This document shows positions 28,758 through 61,292 of a DNA stretch of 64,000 nucleotides, in pieces. The notes under the pieces were generated by a model. That model saw only the letters and a list, made by a program, of their open reading frames with translations, made no database searches and had not been told where the DNA came from. Numbering within the stretch: the stretch's first letter is position 1; the number at the start of each line of letters is the position of its first letter. The stretch comes from Bacilli bacterium (GTDB lineage: Bacteria > Bacillota_I > Bacilli_A > ML615J-28 > CAG-698). The stretch is taken from positions 6,648 through 70,647 of the forward strand of contig JBFXJT010000007.1 in assembly GCA_050174575.1 (NCBI GenBank). The letters are read 5' to 3'. Position numbers and translations under genes: made by a program.

Positions 28758-29284
28758 AAAAAATAATATTATTCCTCCTTTTTGTTAGTTTACTTGCTAT
28801 CGTTGGTTGTACAATTGGTGAAAACACAACTGTTAAAATGTCTTTAAAGTCTGGTATCGATACAGTTGAAATTAATAGCGAATATGTTGATCCAGGTGTC
28901 AAAGCAACTTTTGGTTTATTGAGCCTTGATGTCAAGGTCGTTTCTTCAACCGTCAACACCCAAATGCTCGGGGCTTATGAAATTGTTTATGAAGCTAGTT
29001 ATAACGGTATTTTTAAAACAATTACACGAATAGTGACTGTAATTGATGATACTGCCCCTATTATTTACTTAAATCCTGGTGTTGACACTATTTTAATCGG
29101 TGAAAATTGGGTTGACGCTGGTGTTACGATAACCGACAATAGCAATGTTGTGATTGACCCCATCATAACTGGAGAAATTAACAATCAAGTTGTTGGTGAT
29201 TATGAAATTGTTTATCAAGCAAAAGACTCAAGCAACAATATTAATCAAATTATCCGTATAGTTCATGTTATTGATAACGAATAA
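28754..29284 (+). CDS. Lipoprotein with two Ig-like DUF5011-type domains.
   Basis: Lipobox LLAIVGC. Two repeats of SGIDTVEIN..YVDPGV / PGVDTILIGENWVDAGV. Overlaps the protease stop (ATGA). Confidence 0.6.
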   Translation: MKKIILFLLFVSLLAIVGCTIGENTTVKMSLKSGIDTVEINSEYVDPGVKATFGLLSLDVKVVSSTVNTQMLGAYEIVYEASYNGIFKTITRIVTVIDDTAPIIYLNPGVDTILIGENWVDAGVTITDNSNVVIDPIITGEINNQVVGDYEIVYQAKDSSNNINQIIRIVHVIDNE

Positions 29285-29289
29285 AAAAA

Positions 29290-29306
29290 GGTCCGATTTT
29301 CGGACC
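29290..29306. terminator. Bidirectional intrinsic terminator between convergent genes.
   Basis: GGTCCG-ATTTT-CGGACC hairpin flanked by A-run and T-run. Confidence 0.6.
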
Positions 29307-29309
29307 TTC

Positions 29310-30254
29310 TCACATTAAATTATTTATTTCATCTAAGGTAGGAAGGGCATCAATTGCCCCTTTTTTTGTTGTCACTAACGCGCCTGAAATATTACCAAAC
29401 CGTAAAATTTGTACAATTTGCTCATCAGTTAAATCATCAATATCTAATTTGTCTAAATTGACTAAAACACCAGCATAGAAAGCGTCTCCTGCACCCGTTG
29501 TATCAATTGGTTTTACAATAATTGATGGTACTTTGAGCAAGCGCCCATGGTGAAAAAAAACAGAGCCATCTTTTCCCAAAGTCAAAAAGACTATTTGGTT
29601 TTTTGTTGTGAGTTTCATCAATCCTTTTTCTAAATCTGTTTCACCAGTAAATAAAATTAATTCGTCTTGAGATATTTTTAAATAATCTGCCTTTTTTGCG
29701 TAATATGTATAAATGTTAATTGCTGTTTGCGCATCAACGAATAAATCATCGCGATAGTTAACATCAAAACTTAATGATTTATGGCTTTTTTTCACAAGTT
29801 TAATAATGTGATTTGCAAGTTCTCTTCCTTTTGGTTCGCTTAACAGTAATGAACCAAGATGAACAATATCAGCTTGTTTGATGGCTTCTAAGCTGGTTTT
29901 GGGGATATGAAAATCCGCTTGGTTTTTGTGATAAAAACTAAAGTGGCGTTCGCCATCATCGTCATTCGCAACAAATGCTAAAGTAGTATTGTGAAATGGA
30001 TCTTCCGTAATTAATGTTTTAGAAAAAGGAATTTTAGATGCAAAATCAATTAAAAATTGACCCATCAAATCAACTCCGACATTTCCAACGAACTGAACAT
30101 TTCCTCCATACTTAGCAATGCCACAAGCAACATTAAAAGGAGCTCCACCCGCAAATGTTTGATAAGACATCGTGTTATTAACTTTTTGACCTATTAAATC
30201 AACAAGGATTTCGCCAATACAGACTATCATTTGTTTCTCCTTAAGTTGTTTCAC
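29310..30254 (-). CDS. PfkB-family sugar kinase, probable fructokinase.
   Basis: 314 aa with the C-terminal DTTGAGDAFYAGVL anion-hole motif. Last gene of the fructan locus. Confidence 0.75.
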   Translation of the reverse strand: MKQLKEKQMIVCIGEILVDLIGQKVNNTMSYQTFAGGAPFNVACGIAKYGGNVQFVGNVGVDLMGQFLIDFASKIPFSKTLITEDPFHNTTLAFVANDDDGERHFSFYHKNQADFHIPKTSLEAIKQADIVHLGSLLLSEPKGRELANHIIKLVKKSHKSLSFDVNYRDDLFVDAQTAINIYTYYAKKADYLKISQDELILFTGETDLEKGLMKLTTKNQIVFLTLGKDGSVFFHHGRLLKVPSIIVKPIDTTGAGDAFYAGVLVNLDKLDIDDLTDEQIVQILRFGNISGALVTTKKGAIDALPTLDEINNLM

Positions 30255-31203
30255 CTAAAATTAAATTAGTTGGAACAAAAATGAATTCTTCCGATGTTTC
30301 ATGATTAATTCGTAATATCAGTTGATTAACAATGGCAACGGCAAGAGCTTCAATATCTTGTTTGACAACAGTAAATTTAGGATGTTGTAAAATCTCATCC
30401 ATGACTCCATCAAATGCAATGATTTTGATTTCTTCAGGAACTTTTTTTCCAAGTTGAGTAGCTATCTGAAAGCAAGTATTGGCAAAGGTATCACTTTGGG
30501 CAAAAATTCCGTCCAATGTTGGGTTCTCTTGCATAAATTGTTTTGCAACAACAAATTCTTCACCATGATATACATTCTTATAACAAGAAGTCGGAACCAT
30601 ATTATATTTTTGCATTACATCCAAATAAGCAAAGTAACGTTTTTGTGTTTCTGAAGGAGCAGTGGACATACCACCAATATAGCCAATGTGATGACACCCT
30701 TTTTGGACAAGATGCTCAATGGCTTTAAAAGTACTTTCATAATTATCACTTGTAACACAAGGAACGTTGTCGAGATGACGATCCAAAGTCACTATGTTTA
30801 GCCCTTTGAAATCAACATCCTGATATAAGTGATTGGTGATGAAAATAATCCCGTCGACTTGTCCTGTCTTAATCATATTCAATAAATGAACTTCTTTATC
30901 TCTTTTTCCTTGAGAACTGACAATAATCATTTTGAAACCTTTTTTATACAAGTAATCCTCAATGTAAAAAGCAATTTTACTAAAGAAAACGTGACTAATG
31001 GTTGGAACAAATAGGGCAACTAATCCAGATCTTTGTGCCTGTAGATTTCGCCCTAATTGATTAGGAATGTAATTGAGTGCTTTAATTGCATCTTCTATTT
31101 TTTTTCGCGATTCTTCAGATACATAACCGTTTTTATTAATGTATCGCGAAACAGTTCCCATGCCAACCCCAGCTCGTTTTGCAACTTCTTTCATTTGGGC
31201 CAA
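30241..31203 (-). CDS. LacI-family transcriptional regulator.
   Basis: N-terminal HTH MKEVAKRAGVGMGTVSRYIN and a periplasmic-binding-protein-like effector domain. Confidence 0.85.
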   Translation of the reverse strand: MAQMKEVAKRAGVGMGTVSRYINKNGYVSEESRKKIEDAIKALNYIPNQLGRNLQAQRSGLVALFVPTISHVFFSKIAFYIEDYLYKKGFKMIIVSSQGKRDKEVHLLNMIKTGQVDGIIFITNHLYQDVDFKGLNIVTLDRHLDNVPCVTSDNYESTFKAIEHLVQKGCHHIGYIGGMSTAPSETQKRYFAYLDVMQKYNMVPTSCYKNVYHGEEFVVAKQFMQENPTLDGIFAQSDTFANTCFQIATQLGKKVPEEIKIIAFDGVMDEILQHPKFTVVKQDIEALAVAIVNQLILRINHETSEEFIFVPTNLILGETT

Positions 31204-31290
31204 GGTAGTCGCCTCCTAACATGTTTTCATAAACTATATTATATCACTACGTACTACTATTTTTTAACCGTTTTTCGAAATATTGTAATG

Positions 31291-31339
31291 AAAGTAGTTC
31301 TTTCATGGATGATTAACATCATTTTGAAAGAACTACTTT
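31291..31339 (-). other. Long interrupted stem-loop between the CBM lipoprotein gene and lacI.
   Basis: Perfect 15-nt arms AAAGTAGTTCTTTCA / TGAAAGAACTACTTT, with a nested ATGAT-taac-ATCAT hairpin in the loop. Weak U-tract. Confidence 0.4.
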
Positions 31340-31353
31340 ATTATTAAACAACC

Positions 31354-34098
31354 TTATCCCATTTGATTAGTAATTGTTTGCCATGGAATATTGTGTGTTC
31401 GTTCGACAGTCCATTGATCGCTCGTATCTTTACTGTAAAGAGTTACGGTATCAAAGCCATTAGCAATATCTGGAGTAACTGCATAGTATGTTACAACTTC
31501 ATCAAAGAAGGCAACAGCCCAACCAGCTACTTCAATATCACAAAGTTCCAAATACAATTCCTGGCCTAAGTAAGCACTTAAATCAATAAAATATGTCCCC
31601 ATATCTGCCCATGATCCACCTAAATCTACACTTGGGAAATTGGTATCGCTAAAACGATTTTGTTTATATAAACCAATTTGTGTCCCGTCAGCTAAATAAA
31701 CTTTTACAGCTGCAGCATTAGCACCCATTTTTAAAGAAATAAAGCCTGTTCCGTGAAGAGTAAAATTGGTTGAGCGTAATGAATATTGCTCGCTTTCCGC
31801 AACACCTGAAGTCCATCCGTCAAAGTGATAATCACCGCTTTGGTTATATGGTAATTTTTCATTCCAATAATGTGTTTGACTTATAACAGCATTAACTGTA
31901 ACTTTTTCAGAAGTCCAACCAGTCATATCACCAGTTTCAAAACCTCCATTGATAATTAAACCATTATTGCCCATTTCCCATTCGATATTAACATCTGGTT
32001 CTTGGACACTGTCTTTTGTAGAACCAGCAACAGTATCAAAGCCATTTGCAACATCAGGAACAGTTGTATGATAGAAATTAATATCATCAAAGAAAGAAAC
32101 TGCCCAACCAGCTGTAGCTGGATCATCAATCAATTCAACATAAACTTTTTCGCCTAAATAAGCCGATAAGTCCGCAAAGTAACGTGTCATGGTCGCTAAA
32201 CGTCCACCATTAGCAAGGTATGGGAAATCAAAATCTTTGAAACGATAATTTGTGAAATAACCGATGACTGTTCCATCTTCTTTTACAACACGAACAGCGG
32301 CAGCTTTTCCACCCATCATGAAGGAAACCCAACCAGTACCAGATAATGTAAATAATCCAGAGCGTAAAGTATAACCAGCTGATTCCACGCTTGTTGCTGT
32401 CCAACCATCAAAATGGTAATTTCCTTGTTGGTTATAAGCAATCATTTCGCCCCAGAAAGTTTCTGCGCTTAAGGCACCATTAATTATATCGCCAAAAACA
32501 ACACTCCAACCAGTCATATCACCTGTTTCAAATCCACCGTTTGCGACATTGGTATCGGCAGAAACGACAACATTGAATGTGCTCGTAACTGTTTCGCTTT
32601 CATAAGTTGTCCCATAATGAACAACATATGTTCCTTCTTGATCAAAATCAAAAGCATCAAATCCTGTTGTAAACTCTGTTTCGCCTAAAACAACTTTTGT
32701 AATGACAGCTGGTACAGCCGTTTCGCCATAAGTTATCACGACATCAGCCATTAATGCTGTCAAGTTGTAATCATTTACCATCGCCGTTACAAAACCTTCT
32801 GCTTCAGTTTCAATCATTAAGGCAGGTAATTCAAATGGATAATCATAATTTGTATAGTATTCTTGTAAATGAGCTAGCGAATTATATGAATCGGTGTATG
32901 TTTCTGCCATAATTGCTTGGAAAGTAGATTTCATTAAAGCTTTTACTTCAACTTCCGTCATACTAACACGGAAATCATCAGCATTGATGAAAGCAAATCC
33001 GCTACTTGGATTGTTGTCCACAATCGAGATGTACAACACATCGCCAAGGTATTCGGATGCATCAACATAAACGCGACGTAATGTCAATGGTAATCCTGGA
33101 TCGTTAAATGTTGTATTAGTGACTTGGATTAATTCTGCATCTGTTGTTCCGTCATTAATAGAAATATAACAATTTGTTGGCCCAGAACCAATCATAAAGG
33201 AAATCCAACCATCACCGGCTAATGTGAATTTTGTAGAACGGATTGCTCCAACTGCTGATTCGGCAGTAGCTGCATTGTTATTTCCGTCTAAATAATAATC
33301 ACCTTCACCATAAACCATACGATCAGTCCAATAAAATTGTGATGTTGGAACGACAACTGTTCCACCAAATGCTGTACCGCTTAATTGTTTCCAACCAGTT
33401 AAATCACCTGTTTCAAACCCACCATTTGTAATCGTTGTTGATGTTGGGTCTTCTTCAAATTCTGGTTCTCCATAAGCTTCAATTTGGGCATCACGTTCTG
33501 CTTGCATAGCTGTAACTTCTGCTTCAGTCAAACAAACTACAAAATCATCTAAATTGACATAGCCATAATCATCGGTGTTATCACTGTCAGTTACTCTGAT
33601 ATAAATGATTTTATTCAAATGTGCTGATAAATCAACAACTCTTCTGATCATTTGATCAGTAATAAATGGTTCATCATAATCAGTATTCGTTATTTTTAAC
33701 AAAGCCGTGGCATTGTCTTTTTCAAAGAACTCAACAAAAATCTTATCTTGATTTTTTGCAGCTCCCATTTTAAAAGCAATTTTACCAGTTCCAGTTAATT
33801 TAAAGAAAGAAGATGTTAGTGTACCAACCATTTGTTGAGTACCACCATCCGTTCCACTGAACCAAAATTCTCCTGTTTTATCTACAGTAATTCCATTTAC
33901 TTTTAGATCATTAACGATACCGCGAGGACTAAAAGCCGTTTCTGTTTTTGTCCATCCCGTCCAAACTTCTGCTGTTCCAACTTCAAATCCACCGTTTGTA
34001 ATTTGGGTTGGATACTCTTCTTCTTTACCACATGCTGCTAACAATAATAAAGAGAGTGCTAGCATAAATACAAAGGTAAAACGCCATGTTTTTTTCAT
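31354..34098 (-). CDS. Surface lipoprotein built of four tandem CBM-like beta-sandwich modules (putative fructan-binding protein).
   Basis: Lipobox LLLAAC-G. Four approx 200-aa repeats each starting (I/V)xNGGFE(T/V)G(D/T)xTGW and ending Y(G/V)xxDD(F/I). The same module forms the N-terminal domain of the adjacent canonical GH32. Confidence 0.65.
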   Translation of the reverse strand: MKKTWRFTFVFMLALSLLLLAACGKEEEYPTQITNGGFEVGTAEVWTGWTKTETAFSPRGIVNDLKVNGITVDKTGEFWFSGTDGGTQQMVGTLTSSFFKLTGTGKIAFKMGAAKNQDKIFVEFFEKDNATALLKITNTDYDEPFITDQMIRRVVDLSAHLNKIIYIRVTDSDNTDDYGYVNLDDFVVCLTEAEVTAMQAERDAQIEAYGEPEFEEDPTSTTITNGGFETGDLTGWKQLSGTAFGGTVVVPTSQFYWTDRMVYGEGDYYLDGNNNAATAESAVGAIRSTKFTLAGDGWISFMIGSGPTNCYISINDGTTDAELIQVTNTTFNDPGLPLTLRRVYVDASEYLGDVLYISIVDNNPSSGFAFINADDFRVSMTEVEVKALMKSTFQAIMAETYTDSYNSLAHLQEYYTNYDYPFELPALMIETEAEGFVTAMVNDYNLTALMADVVITYGETAVPAVITKVVLGETEFTTGFDAFDFDQEGTYVVHYGTTYESETVTSTFNVVVSADTNVANGGFETGDMTGWSVVFGDIINGALSAETFWGEMIAYNQQGNYHFDGWTATSVESAGYTLRSGLFTLSGTGWVSFMMGGKAAAVRVVKEDGTVIGYFTNYRFKDFDFPYLANGGRLATMTRYFADLSAYLGEKVYVELIDDPATAGWAVSFFDDINFYHTTVPDVANGFDTVAGSTKDSVQEPDVNIEWEMGNNGLIINGGFETGDMTGWTSEKVTVNAVISQTHYWNEKLPYNQSGDYHFDGWTSGVAESEQYSLRSTNFTLHGTGFISLKMGANAAAVKVYLADGTQIGLYKQNRFSDTNFPSVDLGGSWADMGTYFIDLSAYLGQELYLELCDIEVAGWAVAFFDEVVTYYAVTPDIANGFDTVTLYSKDTSDQWTVERTHNIPWQTITNQMG

Positions 34099-34115
34099 TT
34101 TTTTCTCCTTTTCCT

Positions 34116-36164
34116 CTATTTTACAATAATGTCATATTTGCTTATTTGCTTTAATATAGAACTTCCCCCAACAGTGAAAAATTCAATACCAGTGTCATTT
34201 AAGCCTGGGTAAACATTTCCAGTCATCGTAATATAACCATCATTAATAAAGACTTCAACACTGGAAACGTCTAAAAAGATTCGTAATTTTAAAATCCCAT
34301 TATTTAAGGAAACGTCAGCACTCCTAGTTTGACGGTTGATTTCCGCACCACTGATTGTTTCACCTGAATTTCCTCGATCAAAGATAACTGTTTGTGAAAG
34401 AGCATCATAATAAACTAATGTTTCGTTTTCTGTTCCTTTAAACAGTTTCACCCCAACTTTAGATGCAGATCCAACTTCAATTTCAAGTTCCAGTTCAACC
34501 GTCTTACCAGAAATTTGTGGGAGGACTAAGTTTCCATTAATCGTTTTATTTTGATAACTGACTTCATTTTGACGATAATTTTCGATTTCTCTAACTGGGG
34601 CTTGATAAATATGGCCATCTTTATAGGTCAATTCTCTTGGCAAGGTATAAGCACCAACCCAGTTATGCGCTTGTGTGACTAAAGTACGATCCCACATTTG
34701 CATCCATGCTAGCATAATTGTTCGTCCATCAGGCGTTATCATCGTTTGAGCAGCATAGAAATCAAATCCACCGTCAAATTCTTGAAATTCATCATAATTG
34801 AATTTCCCCGTTTGATAATCAATTCCACCAACCATATAAACTACCGAGTGAATATTTTCAAATTTCGTCTTGTCTCTTGGTAAATTTTGTGGACTAACAA
34901 TTAAAATCTCTTGATTATTTAACTCAATAAAATCTGGGCATTCATAAACACCATTTAACTGTAAGAAATTTGGTGCTTGAGGATTGTTATTGTTCATGAC
35001 TTTGCCAACATAATCCCAACTAGTTAAATTGCTCGAACGATAAAGGACAACCATGCCATAGCCATTTGCTTTCGTACCGATCAAACAATAATAATATCCA
35101 TCATGATAAAACACTTTTGGATCACGAAAATCAGCTGTTGATACACCGATTGGTACCTCAATTGTAGAAATAACTGGATTACGGGTTAATTTTTCAAAAT
35201 TAATCCCATCTTCGGACACTGCTAGATTTTGTGTTTGTTGATTATTGGCTACGCCAGTATACATGAGGTATAATTTCCCATCTTTTTCAATAGCCGTCCC
35301 ACTAAAGCACCCAAAATCTTGATCATATTTTTGATCGGGAGCTAAAGCTACAGGCTGTAATTCCCACTTAACAAAATCCTTCGTTGTTTGATGCCCCCAA
35401 TGCATTGGGCCCCAACTGCTGGCATAAGGGTTAAATTGGTGAAACAAATGACCTTCACCATTAAACCAAATTAATCCGTTGGGATCATTACTCCATCCTA
35501 TTGGAGATGCAGCATGATAAGTATGACGGTAAGTTGGGTTTACAGTATTAAGATTTTCAAGAACATATTGATATGCATCGTGTACTTTTCCCACTTGATC
35601 TTCAACTCCTTGATAATTAACGATAAAATCGTCAACATTGATGTAATTATAGTTATCGGTATTATTATCATTATCAATAATTTTTATTTGAACTGTTTTT
35701 CCAATATGACTACTTCCATCCAATATGACCCGATGGAGAGTATTTGGACTGCTTTCATCAAAATTTAAATTAGCGCGTGTTGCTAATTCATTCCCTCTTG
35801 AGTCAATTAAAGAAACATAACATAAGTCGACATTTGCTCCACCGCTAATCAAAAATCCGATTTTTCCATTCCCTTTTAATTGAAATTTTTCACTTAACAT
35901 AAAACCGGTTTTACTTAAGCCTGCTTTTTTACCATAAAAGAGAAATTCTCCCGTTTGGTTAAAGCGATTGCCATTTTCATCTTTGTCATTAAGAACAACA
36001 CCAGCATCAGTAAAAGCATCACCGTCTTCTTCCCAGTTTTTTAAGGTACCACTTTCAAAACTAGCGTTTAAAAAGGAATATTCGCCATCCACAGTTTGAT
36101 TACATCCTCCTAATATCATGATGAAAGAAAGAAGGATAGCAATCAAAAGCCATTTATTCTTCAT
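34116..36164 (-). CDS. Extracellular GH32 beta-fructofuranosidase/fructanase lipoprotein with an N-terminal CBM-like module.
   Basis: Lipobox ILGGC-N. Canonical GH32 catalytic motifs GWSNDPNG, FRDPKV, ECPDF. C-terminal GH32 beta-sandwich. Confidence 0.85.
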   Translation of the reverse strand: MKNKWLLIAILLSFIMILGGCNQTVDGEYSFLNASFESGTLKNWEEDGDAFTDAGVVLNDKDENGNRFNQTGEFLFYGKKAGLSKTGFMLSEKFQLKGNGKIGFLISGGANVDLCYVSLIDSRGNELATRANLNFDESSPNTLHRVILDGSSHIGKTVQIKIIDNDNNTDNYNYINVDDFIVNYQGVEDQVGKVHDAYQYVLENLNTVNPTYRHTYHAASPIGWSNDPNGLIWFNGEGHLFHQFNPYASSWGPMHWGHQTTKDFVKWELQPVALAPDQKYDQDFGCFSGTAIEKDGKLYLMYTGVANNQQTQNLAVSEDGINFEKLTRNPVISTIEVPIGVSTADFRDPKVFYHDGYYYCLIGTKANGYGMVVLYRSSNLTSWDYVGKVMNNNNPQAPNFLQLNGVYECPDFIELNNQEILIVSPQNLPRDKTKFENIHSVVYMVGGIDYQTGKFNYDEFQEFDGGFDFYAAQTMITPDGRTIMLAWMQMWDRTLVTQAHNWVGAYTLPRELTYKDGHIYQAPVREIENYRQNEVSYQNKTINGNLVLPQISGKTVELELEIEVGSASKVGVKLFKGTENETLVYYDALSQTVIFDRGNSGETISGAEINRQTRSADVSLNNGILKLRIFLDVSSVEVFINDGYITMTGNVYPGLNDTGIEFFTVGGSSILKQISKYDIIVK

Positions 36165-38544
36165 CCAGTGTTACCTCTTCATAAATTGATTTCATTGTTT
36201 TGACAGTCATTTGGTTTATGTTGACTTCACCATTTTCTGAAAACAAGAGTAACCCTAAAGATGAAGGATCGGGATAAATACGGGCAGAAATAGCTTTTTC
36301 ATTGTTGAAAAAAGCTTCAATTAAAGAACGGTCGAGGTAAATATCCATGACTAAAATATTATTATCTAAAACAAATGAGCCATAGAAATTTCCTGAAATG
36401 TTTTGGTTATCGCTTAATGCACCACTTAAACCTGTTTTTACTCCTAAGGTTTTTAATGTCTCATTAAAATAAAGCGTTGTTTCTTCTAACGTAGTGGCGT
36501 TCTTGCGAACTTTTATTCCAAACAAAGTAGCATTAATGTTTTCAAATTCTACGTGAATATAAAGCATGTCACCCTTTACATCAGTTAATAGGGTGTTGGC
36601 TTCACTGATGGACTTATTGCTCATTGTGACTAATGTCTCTTGGTAATAGTCTTCTAGTGCGGATACTGGGCGAATCATTAAATCCGTTCCGTCACTGTTT
36701 AAATAAACTTCTCTAGCCAGTCCAACACAGTTTGCCCACCCAGATAAATAGACATCCGATGGTTTCCTTTGATCCTGCATGATACTGAAAAGATAAGTTT
36801 TTTGGGAAACTGGATCAATAAAACCTGAAGGGCCAGTAAAAACATTATTACCATAATCAAGTAGTCTTGGAGTCGTCCCAAAAGCAGGATCGGGAATAAA
36901 ACGACCAGCAGTTTTATCGAAAGTACCAAGCCAATAATAAATATCATTATCGGCACTGTCAGCAGGAGCAGGACTAATAATCAACATATATTTTGTAATT
37001 GTTTTACTTTCGTTTGTTACGGGAAGCATAATCGGAAGTTCCCAAACAGGCCCTAAATCGGCAGGTTGATTGACTTGTTCGTACAATTGCCCTTTGTAGG
37101 TCCAATTATTAAACGAGTCATCCTTTGTTGTATAAAGTAAAGCTGTCCCACCAGTATTGATTTTGGTACTTGATGATCCAATTAGTAAAAACCAAGTATC
37201 TTCTTCTTGCCAAACATGGGCATCACGAAATTGTCCCGATGCTCCTTGACCAGCTACTTGTTTAATAGCTAATTCATCATCGATTACCCATTCTGTTAAG
37301 TAGGGATCGGTTGGATCTTTGGGCCTAGCAATACCAATGTTTTGATTGCTTATCAAACCATCTTTTTGATAAGAGTCATTTCCAGCAGTAAATAGTAAGA
37401 CGGGAATGCCTTCATTATCATAAGTTACACCACCGCTCCATACACCATCCGGACAAACGGAATCAGCTGTTGGGGTGATAACTTCTTTTAATGGACGCCA
37501 ATTAACCATATCATCACTGATTAAATGCCCCCATCCAATATTGCGAAAATAAGGGCCAAACATATTGAATTGGAAAAATAAGTGATAATACCCATTGTAA
37601 TACATTGGAGCATGAGGTTCATTCATCCAGTGTTGATAAGGACCACCATGATATTGTGTTTTATAAAAATCATCTGTCAGAATATTTTGTAACCAAATAT
37701 CCTCAAAAGCAATTTCCGGAACTGTCTTACTTTCGTAAACTTGCTTTACATCATTTGCTTGTAAACTGGCTTCATAGACTTTTAACTCATCAATCAATCC
37801 ACTTACCATATTTAAAGTTGCCGTAGCATTCGAACCTGGATAACTATTACGAGCAATGAGGAAGGGTTCGCCCGACGCTCCCATAATGGTTGCCCCTTCG
37901 AAAAAATAATCAATGTTGACTAATTCGCCATTTAAATATATGGCCATTTCGCCTTGATCACCATCGAAGGTTGCCACAATATGATTCCATTCATATTTTT
38001 TAAGGGGATTACCTTCATCCCATAAAGTTAACCATCGGTCACCAAGACCTACTTGAAAGCTCCAAGAACCATGGCGTTGATAGCCAAGAATAAATCCTTG
38101 GTTTTCACTTTTATTGTGTTGAGAAACAATCGCTGTTAATTTATCAGTTCCATTGTCTTTGGCATTGGGATCGTCCCACTCAAAGGCCCTTGGAGCAATC
38201 CAAACACTAATTGATAATTTTGAACCGCGAATTTTTAAATCTTCTTCTTGATAACGGATAAAATTAGAATATCCATCAAACAATAAGGAGCCATTATTGA
38301 TCCCTGTTGCGCGCCACTGTGGATCCTCAGGATTTTCCATAAAGCTAGGGTTTGTGAAAACATAAGCAACAGTCGCTGGAGCTTCGTTTTTCGAAGCATC
38401 ATTCACTTTGTTGCCCTGACCTTCATCAAAAGTTAAATGTAACAATAAATCTTTTGTATAAGGGTCGCTCTTTCCACATGCATATAAACTTGAAACAATG
38501 AATAATAGGAAAAAAATAGTCAATAGTTTTTTTGTTATCATCAT
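36154..38544 (-). CDS. Lipoprotein: LamG-like lectin domain plus divergent GH32-like beta-propeller plus GH32 C-terminal beta-sandwich.
   Basis: Lipobox LYAC-G. Motifs HWMNEPHA (replacing WMNDPNG), FRDAHVW (RDP-like), VWELP (replacing WECP). C-terminal DRSLIEAFFNN...ARIYP matches the GH32 C-terminal domain. Confidence 0.7.
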   Translation of the reverse strand: MMITKKLLTIFFLLFIVSSLYACGKSDPYTKDLLLHLTFDEGQGNKVNDASKNEAPATVAYVFTNPSFMENPEDPQWRATGINNGSLLFDGYSNFIRYQEEDLKIRGSKLSISVWIAPRAFEWDDPNAKDNGTDKLTAIVSQHNKSENQGFILGYQRHGSWSFQVGLGDRWLTLWDEGNPLKKYEWNHIVATFDGDQGEMAIYLNGELVNIDYFFEGATIMGASGEPFLIARNSYPGSNATATLNMVSGLIDELKVYEASLQANDVKQVYESKTVPEIAFEDIWLQNILTDDFYKTQYHGGPYQHWMNEPHAPMYYNGYYHLFFQFNMFGPYFRNIGWGHLISDDMVNWRPLKEVITPTADSVCPDGVWSGGVTYDNEGIPVLLFTAGNDSYQKDGLISNQNIGIARPKDPTDPYLTEWVIDDELAIKQVAGQGASGQFRDAHVWQEEDTWFLLIGSSSTKINTGGTALLYTTKDDSFNNWTYKGQLYEQVNQPADLGPVWELPIMLPVTNESKTITKYMLIISPAPADSADNDIYYWLGTFDKTAGRFIPDPAFGTTPRLLDYGNNVFTGPSGFIDPVSQKTYLFSIMQDQRKPSDVYLSGWANCVGLAREVYLNSDGTDLMIRPVSALEDYYQETLVTMSNKSISEANTLLTDVKGDMLYIHVEFENINATLFGIKVRKNATTLEETTLYFNETLKTLGVKTGLSGALSDNQNISGNFYGSFVLDNNILVMDIYLDRSLIEAFFNNEKAISARIYPDPSSLGLLLFSENGEVNINQMTVKTMKSIYEEVTLDEE

Positions 38545-38555
38545 CTTTTTCCCTC

Positions 38556-40904
38556 CTAGATTGTTTTCATTTTAATTACTTGCAAAACATCAACCATAAT
38601 TTGACCATCAGCAAATAACGACATTTCCGATGCATTGTTATAAACCATCGCCGTCAATGTTTGATACCCATTGATGTATATTTCAATCATTGCTCCATCA
38701 ATAAATATTTCTAAATCTAATACTTCCCCAGGAAGAAGAGAAATTCCTCCCCCAAAGATTCCTTTCACAACACTATTTCCAGAATTAGTTGTATCAATTG
38801 AAATAAATTGATCGATTGCGTTATAATTTAGGACTGTCTTTCTCCCTAGTTGATCTTCTTTTAAAGTAAGTCCAAAATTTTGAGAATTTTCATTAGTTAA
38901 TTGAACATGCAAGTATAACTGATTGCCGACCACTGATGCTAAAGCTTGGTTTGCAAATTCAATATTAGTATCTTTTTTATCAACAATGACATCAGTTTTT
39001 AAATTATTTAATTCGTTTAAAGGGGTAATTTTTAAACTGCCGGCATCATCAAGTGACAATTGACGAGGAATACCAGCAGTATGGGCCCATCCTGCATCAT
39101 AATCTTGATGACCATTTCGTTGGCCTTGAATAATGCTACAAATTAAAACACGTCCTGTTAGGGGATCCGTCGAAACCGTTGGCCCCGTAAACACATTGTT
39201 CCCAAAATCCATTAATTTTGGATCTTCATGTTCAGGAATAAAAGTCATCGTTGTTTTATCGAAGTCCCCCAAATAATAGTAAATATCATTATCCGCACCA
39301 GAACCCGCGGGAGAAAACGCAAATATATACTTAGAAACTGTTTTATTAGCGTTCGTTATTTTCGCAAGATTTACTAATTCCCATGTCGTACCCATATAAT
39401 TATGATAAACAGAAGGCATGAACAGTTCGCCTTGATAATCCCAATTCAAAAAAGAATCGTCTTGAGTTGTAAATACTTGGGCAGTTCCTTTATTATCATA
39501 ACGAGCAGATCCGACAAACATGTAGTAAGTTCCATCTTCAAAATAAATATTTGGATCACGAAATTCGTTTGTTTTGGCCATTGATGGTGTTGAGACGGCT
39601 ACTAATTGATCGCTTACATCCCACTCCGTTAAATCAGGATCGCTTAAATCTTTCGGTATTGCAATGGCGATATTTTGATTGCTCCATTGCCCAAAGCTTT
39701 TGGCATCATCACCGGCTGTAAAAAATAATACGGGTGTTCCATCAGCTTTGTATGACGCTCCTCCCGACCAAATACCATCAGGACAAACAGAATTTTTCAT
39801 AAGAATAATGGCTTCTTTCACATTGCGCCAATTGACCATATCAGGACTTACCCAATGACCCCATGCAATTTGCCGCCAGTATGGCCCAGTAAGATTAAAT
39901 TGATAAAACAAATGGTAATTTCCATTGAAATAAAACAAAGCATGTGGTTCATTCATCCAATGTTGAGGTGGTGAAGCATGATATTGAGGTTTGTATATAT
40001 CATCATCTAGCAATTCGTCATTAAGCCAAGCATCTTTAAAATCAATGGCTTTCATGCGGTTTTTTTGTACAAAACTGTTGTGATAGGCTATTATATCCTC
40101 TTCTTTAATTGATGCTTGGTAAATTTTAAGTTCGTCCATTAAACCATTGAACATATTAATTTCATAAAGGCCTGTTTTTTGGGGAACCTGGCTTTTTCCG
40201 ATATACAAAGATGTATTCGCAGCAATAATCTCGCCAAATACATCATTGTGAAAATTAATTATTTCCCCGTTTTTGTATATCCCCATAAATCCGTTTGTTC
40301 CATCAAAAACAAAGGTAAGATGATTCCAAGTATAACGGTCAAGATCATTCCACTCATTCCAAAGTTTAACCCAGCGATCGCCAAGTCCTATTTGAAAGGA
40401 ATATTCACCATATTTATGCATGCCGATAACAAAACCTTGATTTTCTGACATGATGTATTGCCCTAAAACAACTTGCAAATGCTCCGTTCCGTTAACAACT
40501 GCTCCTGGAACATCCCATTCAAACATCCTTGGGCTAATGAATAAATCAATAGTTAAGTTAGGACCGCTAATTTGAATATCCTGATAATCATATTTTATAT
40601 AATTCGAATAACCATCAAAGGCTAAACATGCACCACTAATTGCTGAATTTGTAATCCAAGTTGGATCAATCGATTGCTTGTATTCAGCATCCGTGAAGAC
40701 ATATTCAATCGTGGCTTTTGTCATTGTTGTTTGTTCAGTAAGTTCGTTACCTTCATTTTCATCAAAAGAAGTTGCAAATATTAATTTATCTTGATAAGGG
40801 TCATGATAATCGTGATAATAAATTGCATCCTCCTCTGTTTTTGCACAACCAATAAAGGCCATCATTAAACAAAAAACTGTGATAATTAATAAACCTTTTT
40901 TCAA
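38556..40904 (-). CDS. Paralogous LamG plus divergent GH32-like lipoprotein.
   Basis: Lipobox FIGC-A. Motifs HWMNEPHA, FRDPNIYF, TWELV. The paralogy is shown by matching blocks in both N-terminal LamG regions (e.g. LAFDGYSNYIKYDYQ / LLFDGYSNFIRYQEE, NGTEHLQ / NGTDKLT) and both GH32-like cores (e.g. YHLFYQFN / YHLFFQFN, DMVNWR in both). Confidence 0.7.
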   Translation of the reverse strand: MKKGLLIITVFCLMMAFIGCAKTEEDAIYYHDYHDPYQDKLIFATSFDENEGNELTEQTTMTKATIEYVFTDAEYKQSIDPTWITNSAISGACLAFDGYSNYIKYDYQDIQISGPNLTIDLFISPRMFEWDVPGAVVNGTEHLQVVLGQYIMSENQGFVIGMHKYGEYSFQIGLGDRWVKLWNEWNDLDRYTWNHLTFVFDGTNGFMGIYKNGEIINFHNDVFGEIIAANTSLYIGKSQVPQKTGLYEINMFNGLMDELKIYQASIKEEDIIAYHNSFVQKNRMKAIDFKDAWLNDELLDDDIYKPQYHASPPQHWMNEPHALFYFNGNYHLFYQFNLTGPYWRQIAWGHWVSPDMVNWRNVKEAIILMKNSVCPDGIWSGGASYKADGTPVLFFTAGDDAKSFGQWSNQNIAIAIPKDLSDPDLTEWDVSDQLVAVSTPSMAKTNEFRDPNIYFEDGTYYMFVGSARYDNKGTAQVFTTQDDSFLNWDYQGELFMPSVYHNYMGTTWELVNLAKITNANKTVSKYIFAFSPAGSGADNDIYYYLGDFDKTTMTFIPEHEDPKLMDFGNNVFTGPTVSTDPLTGRVLICSIIQGQRNGHQDYDAGWAHTAGIPRQLSLDDAGSLKITPLNELNNLKTDVIVDKKDTNIEFANQALASVVGNQLYLHVQLTNENSQNFGLTLKEDQLGRKTVLNYNAIDQFISIDTTNSGNSVVKGIFGGGISLLPGEVLDLEIFIDGAMIEIYINGYQTLTAMVYNNASEMSLFADGQIMVDVLQVIKMKTI

Positions 40905-40916
40905 ATTACCACTTCC

Positions 40917-41843
40917 TTACTTCAATCCAGTAAAAGCGACACCTTCAATAATATATCTTTGAGCAAAAATATAAACTAAGGCGATCGGAATCGTACTAAA
41001 TGTTAAGGATGCCATAACTAAAGAAATATCTTTCGGATTAAAATTATTAATCAACTGTAAAAATACTTGCAAAGGTTGTTGCACTGGATTAGAGAACATT
41101 AATTGTGCAAACACATATTCGTTCCAACTTCCCATAAATGTAAAAATAGCGACTGTTGCAAATACTGGCAATGATAGAGGAACAATAACCTTAAAGAAGG
41201 TTGTTAATTTACTAGCACCATCAACATAAGCTGCTTCTTCTAATTCTTTAGGAATTCCCAAGAAAAAAGCCCGAAACATGAAGATATAAAAGGGACTAAC
41301 AATACCTGGTAATAAATAACCAATGACTCTCAATTCTGCTGTCAATAATCCCAAATTTTTTAAAATAACATACAAAGGAACAATAGAAGTCTCAACAGGA
41401 ACAATTAATATTAAAATAATGATACTAACGATGGTTTTATGACCAGGAAAAACAAAACGAGACAACGCATAACCGGCAAGTGAGTTAACTAATAAAACAC
41501 CTGTAATCGAAATTGTTGCATAAATGACACTGTTAAGAATGGATCTTCCAAAATTATCAAAAGTTGCAAATAAATTTTGATAAGATAAAAACCATTTGCT
41601 GATATTCCAAGTAGCTGGTAAAAAGGTTTTTATGGAATTGATGGAGGCATACACTTCTGCTTGAGTTTTAAAACTATTCGAAAGCATCCATACTACAGGA
41701 AATAAAAAGATAATGCATAGCACGATTAAAAAAATTCTAAATAATGTTTTCGCAATTATTTCACGAACTGAGTAATGTCTTTTTTGTTTTTTAGGCAATT
41801 GTAGTATTGATAATGGAATGTTTTTTCGCTTCTTTTTCATCAT
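40917..41843 (-). CDS. Carbohydrate ABC transporter permease (MalG-like).
   Basis: Six TM helices. EAA loop EEAAYVDGASKLTTFFKVIVP. Start taken at the internal MMKKKRKN to avoid a long overlap. Confidence 0.8.
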   Translation of the reverse strand: MMKKKRKNIPLSILQLPKKQKRHYSVREIIAKTLFRIFLIVLCIIFLFPVVWMLSNSFKTQAEVYASINSIKTFLPATWNISKWFLSYQNLFATFDNFGRSILNSVIYATISITGVLLVNSLAGYALSRFVFPGHKTIVSIIILILIVPVETSIVPLYVILKNLGLLTAELRVIGYLLPGIVSPFYIFMFRAFFLGIPKELEEAAYVDGASKLTTFFKVIVPLSLPVFATVAIFTFMGSWNEYVFAQLMFSNPVQQPLQVFLQLINNFNPKDISLVMASLTFSTIPIALVYIFAQRYIIEGVAFTGLK

Positions 41844-41850
41844 TATCACC

Positions 41851-42783
41851 TCAAATTGTGTTATCTTTCTCAAAGACTTTTCTTAAGGTTAAAGCAATCG
41901 TAGCCATAAAGATGGTATAAATTAAAGCGATGGCACTTGAATAACCAACATCCCGGAAATTAATACCTTGCAAATAAATATAATAAGACATCGTTAAGGT
42001 CCGGTCAATCGGACCTCCTCTTGTCATAATCATTGGTTGGGTAATCAACCTAAATGCCCCAATCATCATTGTAATCAGCACAAATGAGAATGTAGGCTTG
42101 ATGCTAGGAAGGGTAATCCGCCAGAATTGTTGGAATTTATTCGCTCCATCGATGCTTGATGCTTCATACAGCTCTTTTGGAATATTTTTTAGTGCTGACA
42201 AGAAAATTAACATTTGGTAACCTGCTCCCTGCCAAGCAGAAATCATGACAATTAAATCCATGGCTTGTTCGGGATCGCTTAAGAAAAGTTGTCTCGATAA
42301 ACCAATAGTTTCAAGGAGGGCATTTATCAATCCATCTTGCTCATTCAATAAGTTAATCCATAACATCGATGTGACCGCCAATGACAACATTGTTGGCACA
42401 AAGAATGCCCATCTAAAAAAGGTATTTCCCTTCATTGGCTTATTTAAAATCAAGGCTAACAAAAGAGCTGCACCAAGTTGTAACGGAATAACTTTTAAAA
42501 CAAATTCCATTGTGTTTTTAAATGCTTGAAGAAGAATTTTATCTTGAAAGGCATTTTTAAAGTTTGCAAAACCAATAAAAGTTGTATTATTTAACTCTAA
42601 TAAATTGGCATCTGTAAACGAATAGGCTAGAGAAATAACAATGGGCATAATGACAAATATAATTCCTAAAATAACAGCAGGAAGCAAAAAACTCCAACCT
42701 ATAATCGTATCAGAAGTTCGGTATGTTTTCCCAAATAATTTAAAATACATTCGGGTATTTGGTTTTTTTACAGATCCTACCAT
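41851..42783 (-). CDS. Carbohydrate ABC transporter permease (MalF-like).
   Basis: EAA loop ELYEASSIDGANKFQQFWRITLP. Six TM helices. Confidence 0.85.
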   Translation of the reverse strand: MVGSVKKPNTRMYFKLFGKTYRTSDTIIGWSFLLPAVILGIIFVIMPIVISLAYSFTDANLLELNNTTFIGFANFKNAFQDKILLQAFKNTMEFVLKVIPLQLGAALLLALILNKPMKGNTFFRWAFFVPTMLSLAVTSMLWINLLNEQDGLINALLETIGLSRQLFLSDPEQAMDLIVMISAWQGAGYQMLIFLSALKNIPKELYEASSIDGANKFQQFWRITLPSIKPTFSFVLITMMIGAFRLITQPMIMTRGGPIDRTLTMSYYIYLQGINFRDVGYSSAIALIYTIFMATIALTLRKVFEKDNTI

Positions 42784-42793
42784 TTTTCACCTC

Positions 42794-44134
42794 TTAATTG
42801 TCAATTTGAACGACTTGAGTGTCAATGTAATCTTCTAAATTGTATTCTGTTGTTCCATTCATTGTTTCGATGTATTCAATAATTTTACTGTAGCTACTAC
42901 TTACTTTAGGATAGTTGATCATTTTTGGTCGGGGAGTAGCAATTTCTTGTAAAATAGTTGCTAATGAACCTAAAGCTCCCGTTTGGAATCCTGTTAAATC
43001 ATTCAAAAGTGATTTATGGGTTGGAAATGTTCCAATTGATTCATACATTAATTGGCTTCCAGTAACTCCTGTTATATAAGCAACAGCAATCGCTGCTGAA
43101 GCAGGATCGGATGAATTAACCGTTACTCCAAATCCCCATGAACCACAACCAGCAACCGGCGTTCCTTTTGTAGTTTCGTCTTCATAAACAGGCATCGGCA
43201 TAATTCCATAACTTGGAATAAAAGTATTATAATTTTTCTTAATCGTCGAAATATTCCATGGTCCGTGAATTTCAAAAGCGCATTCTCCACCTGCTAAAGC
43301 ATCTGTATTGCTGCCATTGTAAACCCAAGGTTCGCCATCATCATCGGGGTTGAAGAACATTTCTAACATTTTAATTCCTTTAATAGAATTAGAAGAGTTA
43401 AGGGCACCATCAACGACTTCATTGGCGCCAAAGAAACTCCCACCTGAAGAATATATTAATGATGAATATAAATACATGACACCTTCATCGCCACCAAATC
43501 CTAAGTTCAATTTAATTCGATATTCAAGGTTGGCAGCTTTTAGGGCAACCATTGCTTCCATAACATCAAGCCAAGACCAAGGATTAGTAACTGTCCCAAA
43601 ATCTTCTTCATCATAACCAACTTGCTTTAATAAATCCTTATTAAAATACATTCCAGTTGGCGCATCCATACCGGATAAAGCATATAATTTTCCATCAATC
43701 GTACTTTGTTCGATGACGCTGTCAACATAACTCGAAGTAATATCAGTTGTTAAATATTGATCAATCGGTGCTAAAATGCCCGCATCAGCATAAGCAGCTA
43801 TATTAGGGGCATCAACAGCAACAATGTCAGGAAGTCCTCCTGATAGAATTTCCGCGTTGATTGCTGTTTGTAAAGTATCAGAACTGTTTTTAAATTCTAA
43901 TTTCATTTTTAAAATTCTTGTTCCATCAGCAGTTTTTAATTGTTGTTCATTAAACAATTCAGCAATTGTGGAATAAACAATCCCTTCATCTTCTGCTTCG
44001 GATTTATGAACCCAAACCTTAATTACTTTTACCTCGTCCGTATCTTCATCTTCTGCTGGACCACAACCAACAAACACCAAGAAACTAAGCAAAAGTACCA
44101 TAACACTTAAAAAAAGTTTTCCAAAATTTTTCAT
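42794..44134 (-). CDS. Extracellular sugar-binding lipoprotein of the ABC transporter (family 1 SBP).
   Basis: Lipobox FLVFVGC-G followed by an acidic linker. 446 aa, typical of oligosaccharide SBPs. No ATPase gene in the locus. Confidence 0.85.
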   Translation of the reverse strand: MKNFGKLFLSVMVLLLSFLVFVGCGPAEDEDTDEVKVIKVWVHKSEAEDEGIVYSTIAELFNEQQLKTADGTRILKMKLEFKNSSDTLQTAINAEILSGGLPDIVAVDAPNIAAYADAGILAPIDQYLTTDITSSYVDSVIEQSTIDGKLYALSGMDAPTGMYFNKDLLKQVGYDEEDFGTVTNPWSWLDVMEAMVALKAANLEYRIKLNLGFGGDEGVMYLYSSLIYSSGGSFFGANEVVDGALNSSNSIKGIKMLEMFFNPDDDGEPWVYNGSNTDALAGGECAFEIHGPWNISTIKKNYNTFIPSYGIMPMPVYEDETTKGTPVAGCGSWGFGVTVNSSDPASAAIAVAYITGVTGSQLMYESIGTFPTHKSLLNDLTGFQTGALGSLATILQEIATPRPKMINYPKVSSSYSKIIEYIETMNGTTEYNLEDYIDTQVVQIDN

Positions 44135-44223
44135 TTTCGTTCATCCTTTCTTATTATTGTTGAAAATGTGAAAATAGTTTGTTTTATAAAGTGAAAAAGA
44201 GATCTAGAAAATACAAATTTAAG

Positions 44224-44237
44224 TGGAATCGTTTCCA
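44224..44237. promoter_or_regulatory. cre / LacI-family operator-like palindrome (proximal).
   Basis: TGGAATCGTTTCCA fits TGNAANCGNNNNCA. It overlaps the probable -35 region of the locus promoter, approx 90-100 nt upstream of the SBP start. Confidence 0.5.
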
Positions 44238-44279
44238 TGTTTTGCTAAAAAAAAGAAAAAATCTTATTTTTTTAAAATG

Positions 44280-44293
44280 TGGAAACGATTCCT
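44280..44293. promoter_or_regulatory. cre / LacI-family operator-like palindrome (distal).
   Basis: TGGAAACGATTCCT, the reverse complement of the proximal site core, centred approx 56 bp further upstream. Confidence 0.5.
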
Positions 44294-44436
44294 CTAGTTG
44301 CTTTTATTTTAAACCACCCCGTTTTTTTTGTCAAGCGTTTTCTTTTATTATTTTTTAAAAATAAAAAATACTATGGCGTTTCCCATAGTATCTAAAAACT
44401 GATTGTTATTCTCTTCTTATTTTCTTAATAATTTAA

Positions 44437-44527
44437 TGGCGGAGGAGAAGGGATTTGAACCCTTGCACCGTTTTACCGATCTGCTCGCTTTCGAGACGAG
44501 TCCCTTCAGCCGCTTGGGTACTCCTCC
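44437..44527 (-). tRNA. tRNA-Ser (anticodon CGA), long variable arm, encoded CCA.
   Basis: Manual fold: acceptor GGAGGAG/CTCCTCC, anticodon stem CTCGT/GCGAG with loop CTCGAAA, extended variable arm, T-arm AAGGG-TTCAAAT-CCCTT. Confidence 0.85.
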
Positions 44528-44533
44528 AAATTT

Positions 44534-45331
44534 CTAGTCATTTTTTGTTTTTAAAAATTCATAAAAGTCGTTAACAACCTGTACTAATTCCCAATCTAAA
44601 TACTCTAAAGCCTGAATTTTTAAATCGTCTGGAATACCATAGTATGCTTCCGCAAGATTACCTGTAATTGCTCCTAGTGTATCACTATCACCACCAATGG
44701 AAATGGCATTTCGAATGGCATCTTCAAAAGAATATGATTCAAAAAAAGCAACAATTGCTTGAGGAACAGTTCCTTGGCAAGTCTCATCAAAAGTGTAATT
44801 GTCCCTTATTTGATCCAAAGTAAAATTAAGAGCATAATAATGAGCTTTAATGAATGCTCGCATTACTTCAATGGATGTTTTCTTTTTCGCAAGCACCATC
44901 AACCTTGCGATTGCTTCTGCACCCTTCATTCCTTCAGGATGGTTATGAGTGATAGCAGTTACTTTCTCGGATAAACTGATGGCCTCTTCTTCCGTTCTCG
45001 CAATCAATCCTACCGGACCAATGCGCATTGCTGCACCATTACCATAACTACCGTATGGTTCAGGTTTCGAAGTAAAAAGCCAACGAAAAAAATTACCCCC
45101 ATAACCCACATCAGGGTATAAGTTTCCAAAATAACGCATTTGTTCAATAGCCCTTGCTGATAATTTTTGATAATCACCTTGACAATCCATCAAGGCTTTT
45201 CCGATAGCTATTGACATTACTGAGTCATCAGTAAAAAAACAATTGGGTGTGAATAATGAAAATTCTTTACTTTTATTATTATCCCACTCAAATCTAGAAC
45301 CAACAATATCACCAATTATGGCTCCTAGCAT
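44534..45331 (-). CDS. ADP-ribosylglycohydrolase family protein.
   Basis: 265 aa. N-terminus MLGAIIGDIVGSRFEW and the internal TDDSVMSIA and GGDSDT motifs are typical of the ARH/DraG fold. Confidence 0.8.
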   Translation of the reverse strand: MLGAIIGDIVGSRFEWDNNKSKEFSLFTPNCFFTDDSVMSIAIGKALMDCQGDYQKLSARAIEQMRYFGNLYPDVGYGGNFFRWLFTSKPEPYGSYGNGAAMRIGPVGLIARTEEEAISLSEKVTAITHNHPEGMKGAEAIARLMVLAKKKTSIEVMRAFIKAHYYALNFTLDQIRDNYTFDETCQGTVPQAIVAFFESYSFEDAIRNAISIGGDSDTLGAITGNLAEAYYGIPDDLKIQALEYLDWELVQVVNDFYEFLKTKND

Positions 45332-61201: not shown

Positions 61202-61292
61202 TGGCGGAGGAAAGGGGATTTGAACCCCTGCGCCAGGTTAATGGCCTACTAGCTTTCCAAGCCAGCCCCTTCAGCCACTTGGGTACTCCTCC
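61202..61292 (-). tRNA. tRNA-Ser (anticodon GGA), long variable arm, encoded CCA.
   Basis: Manual fold: acceptor GGAGGAG/CTCCTCC, anticodon stem CTGGC/GCTAG with loop TTGGAAA, long variable arm, T-arm AGGGG-TTCAAAT-CCCCT. Confidence 0.85.

Follow-up and report, generated by a model that had tools for sequence, protein, structure and literature searches.

A nine-gene locus probably serving inulin-type fructan use in a Bacilli bacterium, with a separate surface lipoprotein of four CBM38-like modules

We analysed a stretch of 64 kb from an uncultured, low-GC Bacilli bacterium (assembly GCA_050174575.1, contig JBFXJT010000007.1; the window) in which nine co-directional minus-strand genes at 29310-44134, with short or overlapping junctions, encode a solute-binding lipoprotein (SBP), two permeases of an ATP-binding cassette (ABC) importer, three exported enzymes of glycoside hydrolase family 32 (GH32A, GH32B and GH32C), a non-catalytic lipoprotein of 914 amino acids (aa), a LacI-family repressor and a PfkB-family sugar kinase (Table 1). 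This is the gene content, strand and order given in a preliminary description of the same DNA; the open reading frames (ORFs) lie at the positions it gave, and a Pfam scan agreed with it by assigning a domain to eight of the nine products, with no significant match for the 914-aa protein. The co-location of a polysaccharide-degrading enzyme, a transporter and a regulator corresponds to the definition of a Gram-positive polysaccharide utilization locus (PUL) from Sheridan et al. 2016 in the form quoted in PMC7833758 (at least one degrading enzyme, a transporter and a regulator). We put at roughly 0.75 the probability that the locus is a Gram-positive PUL for a fructan, most probably one of the beta-2,1 (inulin) type.

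Members of GH32 are recognised by a five-bladed propeller (PF00251) followed by a beta-sandwich (PF08244), and by a catalytic triad within the motifs WMN(D/E)P, RDP and EC(P). All three exported enzymes contained both domains, with E-values of 9e-91, 4e-54 and 2e-57 for the propeller and 7e-35, 3e-22 and 2e-17 for the sandwich, and every acidic residue of the triad was kept, with variation at the residue after RD and at the Cys of EC. GH32C is by sequence a canonical exo-type enzyme with one CBM38-like module: its motifs are WSNDPNG, FRDP and YECP, it scored 427.7 against the NCBIfam model scrB_fam (cut-off 356.4), and its closest solved structures are exo-acting beta-fructofuranosidases and one exo-inulinase. 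GH32A carries WMNEPHAL, FRDP and WELV (triad E319, D450 and E509), and GH32B carries WMNEPHAP, FRDA and WELP (triad E309, D441 and E502). Both had been labelled LamG-GH32-like, which was right as to kinship but understated the case, the two being full GH32 enzymes with a complete triad in which Glu stands for the Asp nucleophile. The motif WMNEPH[ASV]P was present in 120 of the 120 GH32B homologs listed, and the Glu motif recurs in partner enzymes of Lachnospiraceae, to which GH32B is 50% identical. GH32A and GH32B share 40% identity and are old paralogs. Of the solved structures, those of plant invertases and fructan exohydrolases matched best, with an E-value of only 1e-41.

The decisive link to characterised enzymes came when a Paenibacillus fusion protein was used as query and two named cycloinulo-oligosaccharide fructanotransferases (CFTases) were returned, those of Niallia circulans (O52973, 1503 aa; numbered P0283 among the proteins that we compared) and Paenibacillus polymyxa (1333 aa). 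P0283 and P0330, the second named CFTase, have the motifs WMNEAHAP, FRDP and WELP. Residues 30-790 of GH32B aligned with residues 557-1312 of P0283 at 39% identity over 782 aa (E 7e-171), and GH32A aligned with the same protein at 35% identity over 762 aa, spanning LamG and catalytic core. With a Glu nucleophile and full-length homology (LamG-like domain plus core) to a characterised member, GH32A and GH32B belong to a Glu-nucleophile clade together with CFTases, by direct comparison, and with endo-inulinases, by way of the Glu reported for these in the literature. That residue has been described as E43 in the endo-inulinase INU2, where the E43D variant retains about 5% of the activity (PMC3829992), and the triad of the endo-inulinase EnIA of Arthrobacter S37 as E323, D460 and E519 (PMC5984348). 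INU2 of Aspergillus ficuum (PDB 3RWK) and EnIA of Arthrobacter sp. S37 both have the Glu nucleophile in WMNEP, as GH32A and GH32B do. The EnIA triad lies at nearly the same positions as E309, D441 and E502 of GH32B, by published residue numbers, which implies a similar N-terminal extension of about 300 aa; INU2 was a distant match only (E 2e-25) and is without the LamG domain present in GH32A and GH32B.

The second line of evidence is the 914-aa protein, which consists largely of four repeats of about 185 aa (residues 27-214, 216-403, 513-700 and 711-895), each opening with NGGFE-G---GW, and a middle domain of about 110 aa. A fifth copy forms the N terminus of GH32C (residues 27-206; DNA about 35550-36098). 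Pairwise BLAST comparisons among modules gave E-values from 2e-9 to 1e-63, and the GH32C copy matched the first module of the 914-aa protein at 1e-24 and the hidden Markov model (HMM) of the module at 1e-52. AlphaFold models reached a pLDDT of 89 for the entire protein and 92.5 for a single module, and the latter is predicted to adopt a carbohydrate-binding module (CBM) fold like that of chain-binding beta-jelly-roll CBMs. With four repeats found by BLAST, this fold and the lipobox LAAC, the earlier view of the product as a lipoprotein with four CBMs is borne out. Foldseek with the full-length model returned multi-domain noise (reelin, Cry and Vip3), and the single-module model was required. 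A search of PDB sequences with the 914-aa protein gave no match, the module profile matched only the N-terminal NGGFETG motif of two known CBMs, and the NCBIfam assignment NTTRR-F1 was rejected, being below its cut-off and covering only that motif. The 914-aa protein has hundreds of homologs; Pfam recognises no domain in any of them, almost every one is labelled hypothetical, and the majority have about 720 aa and three modules. The module profile itself retrieved 1140 clusters (50% identity, E <= 1e-10) among 1.84 billion representatives.

The module HMM also found repeats in both CFTases, at residues 75-247, 260-393 and 1169-1329 of P0330 and at four sites in P0283 (E 1e-17 to 1e-57), and the window modules are 30-46% identical to these repeats. 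They are homologous to the CFTase repeats and CBM38-like, the inulin-binding module of CFTase being the founder of the CAZy family CBM38. As far as Lee et al. 2004 is relayed in PMC4835578, the CFTase repeats are an inulin-binding module. In a Defluviitalea protein, CBM38 was assigned by dbCAN at residues 44-189, 221-367, 409-527 and 1313-1448 (PMC7355431), and in the protein of the same architecture at our locus L076 (relatives are numbered L for loci and P for proteins) the module HMM matched residues 38-209, 222-390, 403-533 and 1306-1464, a coincidence of coordinates that is indirect evidence for CBM38. By analogy with related CBM families, the invariant N, E and C-terminal Asp residues of the module look structural rather than ligand-binding. 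An ORF of about 2024 aa on the minus strand of L045 has at least seven NGGFE-type modules; its neighbours are a module protein of the ordinary kind and a GH32 of Glu type.

In a scan of one genome per species, at least 209 loci encoded a module protein, and the best 80 of these were analysed; they came from Oscillospiraceae, Lachnospiraceae, Christensenellaceae, uncultured Bacilli and Clostridia, and Paenibacillus. In 70 of the 80, a Glu-type GH32 was encoded no more than 10 kb from the module protein, usually next to it, and in 17 of the 80, mostly from Paenibacillus, modules, LamG and Glu-type GH32 were joined in one polypeptide 1469-2266 aa long, in many cases equipped with SLH anchors. On these architectures the window encodes the CFTase-type arrangement, a single chain in Paenibacillus, in a split form anchored as lipoproteins. 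The nine-gene order was identical in L006 (GH32B 84% identical), L007 and L009, and a 797-aa GH32B homolog was found on 782 contigs. The cultured Pumilibacter muris has a GH32B homolog of 57% identity, and cluster look-ups gave no informative names for homologs. At L078:4840-15532 in Paenibacillus (also L064, L069, L072, L077 and L082), the CFTase-like S-layer enzyme stands beside two genes, for a LamG-GH32 protein of 759 aa with WMNEPHAP and no signal peptide and for a PfkB-GH32 fusion of 823 aa, a layout that would fit import of cyclofructans followed by ring opening in the cytoplasm.

Table 1. Positions of the genes and of the transcription and regulatory features at the locus (window coordinates)
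Feature	Position	Strand	Evidence and remarks
tRNA-Ser(CGA)	44437..44527	-	ARAGORN; upstream neighbour of the locus
Terminator-like hairpin of tRNA-Ser(CGA)	44393..44366		After the tRNA, before P1
Promoter P1, structural operon, TTGACA-17-TAAAAT	44306..44334	-	11/12 matches
Operator O1, GGAAACGATTCC	44281..44292		About +8 to +19 from the inferred start site
Operator O2, inside TGGAAACGATTCCA on the coding strand	44225..44236		56 bp from O1
SBP lipoprotein of a CUT1-type ABC importer, 446 aa	42794..44134	-	SBP_bac_1 5.5e-28; lipobox FVGC
MalF/UgpA-like ABC permease, 310 aa	41851..42783	-	BPD_transp_1; NCBIfam UgpA and MalF below cut-off
MalG/UgpE-like ABC permease	40917..41873	-	BPD_transp_1; MalG and UgpE matches
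GH32A lipoprotein: LamG-like domain, GH32 propeller, GH32 C-domain	38556..40904	-	Laminin_G_3, GH32N and GH32C-domain
GH32B lipoprotein: LamG-like domain, GH32 propeller, GH32 C-domain	36154..38544	-	Laminin_G_3, GH32N and GH32C-domain
GH32C lipoprotein: N-terminal CBM38-like module, canonical GH32	34116..36164	-	GH32N 9e-91, GH32C-domain 7e-35
914-aa non-catalytic lipoprotein, four CBM38-like beta-jelly-roll modules	31354..34098	-	
Strong stem-loop 3' of the 914-aa gene, weak U-tract	31286..31343	-	Minimum free energy -22.9 kcal/mol, z = -6.4 vs shuffles
Promoter P2, TTAAAA-18-TG-n-TATAAT, extended -10	31238..31267	-	Ahead of the LacI gene
LacI-family repressor, 320 aa	30241..31203	-	LacI helix-turn-helix 1.6e-19, Peripla_BP_3 4e-22
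PfkB-family sugar kinase, about 306-314 aa	29310..30254	-	PfkB 1.3e-52
Intrinsic terminator at the locus end	29285..29311	-	12-bp stem, then T-run

The products that would act on the polymer carry export signals of the lipoprotein kind. Hydrophobic N-termini are followed by a lipobox in the SBP (FVGC), GH32A (FIGC), GH32C (LGGC) and the 914-aa protein (LAAC), while the corresponding motif of GH32B is L-Y-A-C, with an atypical residue at position -2; the claim of a lipobox on every exported product is therefore good for four of them and less clear for GH32B. All five are predicted to be lipoproteins on the outer face of the membrane. The SBP and the two MalF/MalG-type permeases make up an importer of the CUT1 kind. 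For the MalG-like permease, translation probably begins at an internal ATG pair, giving about 307 aa, the length at which the L006 ortholog is called, and the ribosome-binding site (RBS) GGAAGTGG precedes a TTG start in GH32A.

Regulation by the LacI protein is suggested by the arrangement ahead of the SBP gene. P1 was the top-scoring sigma-70-like site within 29000-44700, and its TTGACA is kept in L006. Only two exact copies of GGAAWCGWTTCC occur in the 64 kb, at 44281-44292 and 44225-44236, downstream of P1 and upstream of the SBP start at 44134, and these correspond to the operators previously proposed upstream of that gene. L006 has two copies of the 12-mer as well, again at a spacing of 56 bp, and in L011, L042, L050, L053 and L054 (Clostridia and Christensenellaceae loci) the 12-mer immediately precedes SBP or GH32 genes, a pattern that speaks for an operator conserved within this LacI group. 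The regulator combines an N-terminal LacI helix-turn-helix with a periplasmic-binding-protein fold, and the predicted operator is palindromic, CG-centred and close to the promoter. At L007:4370-4400 an operator variant, TGGAAACGATACCA, sits at the RBS of the SBP gene, with GAAAGCGCTTTGA, which resembles a catabolite-responsive element (cre), further upstream. At the window locus the number of CcpA cre sites was not above chance, and none lay in the promoter.

Further down, P2 is the sole site in the region with TG ahead of its -10 hexamer, and this extended -10 promoter of their own points to LacI and the kinase as a separate transcription unit, probably transcribed apart from the structural genes. 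The stem-loop between the two groups is probably the end or a stabiliser of the structural transcript. The terminator at the end of the locus is common to it and to convergent plus-strand genes (head-to-head).

These parts can be joined in a proposed flow of capture, cleavage, trimming, import and phosphorylation under LacI control that fits every one of them. The four-module lipoprotein would seize the fructan polymer at the cell surface, GH32A and GH32B would cleave it internally, and GH32C would trim the fragments to fructose and short oligosaccharides. The SBP and the two permeases would take up the products with an ATPase from elsewhere in the genome, and the PfkB kinase would convert free fructose to fructose-6-phosphate. 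LacI, made from P2, would occupy O1 and O2 below P1 until freed by a fructan-derived sugar. Surface depolymerisation of a fructan had been proposed before, and the exported GH32 enzymes, the lipoboxes and the CBM38-type modules support it, with inulin indicated over levan.

Several observations weigh against reading the locus as an inulin PUL, a reading that draws throughout on sequence. Among the characterised enzymes compared in sequence (CFTases and solved structures), those nearest to GH32A and GH32B are transferases, and the identity is only 35-39%. RDP is replaced by RDA in GH32B and by RDM or RDA in most members of its clade, a change at the residue next to the transition-state Asp: among homologs P0121-P0240, RDM occurred in 72 of 120 and RDA in 35, and RDP in only 10. 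For the CBM38 label we relied on the CFTases of P. polymyxa and N. circulans, to whose repeats the modules are homologous, and not on a CAZy model or on the P. macerans protein for which binding was measured. The best solved relatives of the SBP are sugar SBPs, at only E 7e-16, too distant to indicate specificity, and the LacI regulator matched no NCBIfam equivalog at cut-off. The kinase is probably a fructokinase, its top NCBIfam model being fructokinase NF006957, but at 212.6 bits it fell below the equivalog cut-off of 450.

The importer and the fate of its substrate also count on this side. No ORF in the window combines a Walker A motif with the size of an MsmK/MalK-type ATPase, in accord with the earlier statement that no ATPase gene is present, and we infer that the importer is powered by an ATPase encoded elsewhere. 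The sole window ORF with Walker A (GQSGSGKS) is one of 231 aa at 49757-50452, which overlaps an ORF of 389 aa (the pair spanning 49757-51614 on the minus strand); the two probably form a small ABC exporter pair and would not supply the ATPase that the importer lacks. The window has no GH32, cytoplasmic or otherwise, beyond the three exported enzymes, so that import of fructose and import of oligosaccharides are both compatible with the gene set: the importer may take up mainly fructose, or else a gene for a cytoplasmic GH32 lies outside the window.

The target might instead be levan or mixed grass fructans (beta-2,6), with the LamG domains as CBM66-like levan binders and GH32A and GH32B as endo-levanases. 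Levan-binding CBM66 does fall within Pfam Laminin_G_3, extracellular gut GH32 enzymes with LamG have been annotated as CBM66 (PMC7833758; PMC5320581), and many of the metagenome-assembled genomes with homologs come from herbivore guts, rich in grass fructans. However, that broad Pfam family was all that the LamG region matched, and when residues 25-290 of GH32B were compared with all PDB chains at E <= 10, the only hits were 4qvs, 4dqa and 3aih, the CBM66 of B. subtilis SacC not being among them. The solved endo-levanase LevB1 matched much less well (E 2e-14) than did plant invertases or CFTases, the named CFTases act on inulin, the modules belong to an inulin-binding repeat family, and a Glu nucleophile is reported for endo-inulinases (PMC3829992; PMC5984348). 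We therefore regard a levan target as unlikely.

A second alternative keeps inulin as the substrate and changes the reaction, with GH32A, GH32B or both as CFTase-like fructanotransferases that convert inulin at the surface to cyclic or non-reducing inulo-oligosaccharides for this transporter alone. CFTases are the only characterised homologs shown, WMNE[PA]HAP, FRD and WELP are held in common, and the set of modules, LamG and GH32 is that of a CFTase in split form. Against this, the identity is only 35-39%, GH32A and GH32B are no closer to the CFTases than to the 759-aa Paenibacillus paralog that lacks a signal peptide, the cassette encodes an exported exo-GH32 but nothing cytoplasmic that would open rings, and the Glu nucleophile is the same in endo-inulinases according to the literature (PMC3829992; PMC5984348), which together make fructan transfer quite improbable here. 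A long shot of the same kind would have the poly-CBM38 lipoprotein and the Glu-type LamG-GH32 act as a split CFTase-like machine, turning inulin into cyclic or protected inulo-oligosaccharides for private uptake; if true, it would be a fructan counterpart of the starch cyclodextrin route, widespread in uncultured Bacillota of guts and digesters.

That the locus scavenges only sucrose or short fructo-oligosaccharides (FOS), the 914-aa protein being an adhesin or structural protein that binds no fructan, is very hard to credit: many Gram-positive loci with GH32, ABC, LacI and kinase genes do take FOS only (PMC7833758) and the 914-aa protein has no annotated domain, but the CBM-fold module is present in five copies, one of them on a GH32 enzyme, the module protein is closely linked and sometimes fused to Glu-type GH32 across taxa, and two of the three exported GH32 enzymes come from the endo-type clade.

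Read as an inulin PUL, the locus resembles several known systems in part. The fructan PULs of Roseburia and Eubacterium rectale (Eub-3 and Eub-4; Sheridan et al. 2016, PMC5320581) and those of other butyrate producers (Tanno et al. 2021, PMC7833758) are inducible fructan or FOS loci of Bacillota that likewise combine GH32, ABC, LacI and fructokinase genes. Those loci have one GH32, mostly cytoplasmic, and at most CBM66, whereas the window has three exported GH32 enzymes (two of Glu type), lacks a cytoplasmic one and has poly-CBM38 as a lipoprotein of its own. The CFTases of Niallia (Bacillus) circulans, P. polymyxa and P. macerans share the module family and the LamG-GH32 core with the window, but CFTase is secreted as one polypeptide (1333-1503 aa; relatives with SLH anchors reach about 2270 aa) in place of separate lipoproteins, and transfer, the reaction of CFTase, is only a candidate activity for the window proteins. 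In the fructan PUL of Bacteroides thetaiotaomicron (the surface endo-levanase BT1760, a surface glycan-binding protein and SusCD), the logic of surface binder, surface endo-enzyme, importer and intracellular or periplasmic exo-enzymes is the same. There, however, an outer membrane and a TonB-dependent importer are involved, the system is levan-specific, the binding protein is unrelated to that of the window, and the endo-levanase has an Asp nucleophile and is a weak match. Importers of the CUT1 type that share MsmK, such as the Fus FOS importer of Streptococcus pneumoniae, consist of an SBP and two permeases with no ATPase in cis, as in the window; the window SBP is distant from every solved FOS-binding protein.

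As a whole, the locus is ordinary and no surprise, a well-formed member of a familiar class of sugar-utilization loci; what is under-described is the stand-alone surface protein of four inulin-binding-type modules. In the literature searched, coverage of which was incomplete, we found no description of a stand-alone poly-CBM38 protein paired with a Glu-type GH32, nor of a gut homolog that had been characterised or of any CBM38 protein that stands alone. No prebiotic is more widely used than inulin, and capture of the polymer at the Gram-positive surface is poorly described. The conserved pair, present in Oscillospiraceae, Lachnospiraceae, Christensenellaceae and uncultured Bacilli, consists of a Glu-type LamG-GH32 and a surface protein that is non-catalytic, has three to at least five CBM38-type modules, is annotated as hypothetical and is invisible to Pfam. 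If it works as proposed, the pair could mark those uncultured Bacillota that are primary degraders of inulin and serve as a source of candidate endo-inulinases or fructanotransferases for FOS production.

The preliminary description had also called the locus an accessory element bounded by tRNA-Ser. Its accessory nature agrees with the variable context in relatives, the flanks of the closest ones, L006 and L007, being unlike the window, unlike each other and without a tRNA; insertion targeted to the tRNA did not hold up. We rejected a tRNA-integrated genomic island, having found no integrase among the flanking genes scanned, no repeat of the 3' end of tRNA-Ser(CGA) at the distal border of the locus (its sole other match in the window is the tRNA-Ser at 61202), no informative direct repeats at the locus, and a GC content of 0.32-0.375 both inside and outside it, with no shift. 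Given the missing attachment (att) repeat, integrase and GC shift and the tRNA-free flanks of L006 and L007, tRNA-Ser(CGA) is a neighbour and is not shown to be an insertion site. When metagenomes were scanned with the ADP-ribosylglycohydrolase gene that flanks the locus, 15 relatives were retrieved, none above 59% identity, with no tRNA-Ser nearby in the 7 of the 15 scanned and no other window gene nearby. The second tRNA-Ser (GGA; 61202-61292, minus strand) is identical to tRNA-Ser(CGA) at 23 of 25 positions of the 3' end.

Among the other neighbours, two plus-strand genes at 26073-29284 converge on the locus and share its terminator; they encode an S8 subtilase with four Listeria-Bacteroides repeats and a small lipoprotein with bacterial surface Ig-like domains. 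Beyond them lie genes for spermidine synthase and AdoMet decarboxylase (24169-25814), which adjoin a minus-strand gene at 22517-24157 for a diguanylate cyclase (GGDEF 4.5e-43) that also has PAS and hemerythrin domains. On the tRNA side, a minus-strand ORF of 238 aa at 45358-46074, which matches no Pfam family, lies between the ADP-ribosylglycohydrolase gene and a Glu/Leu dehydrogenase-like gene.

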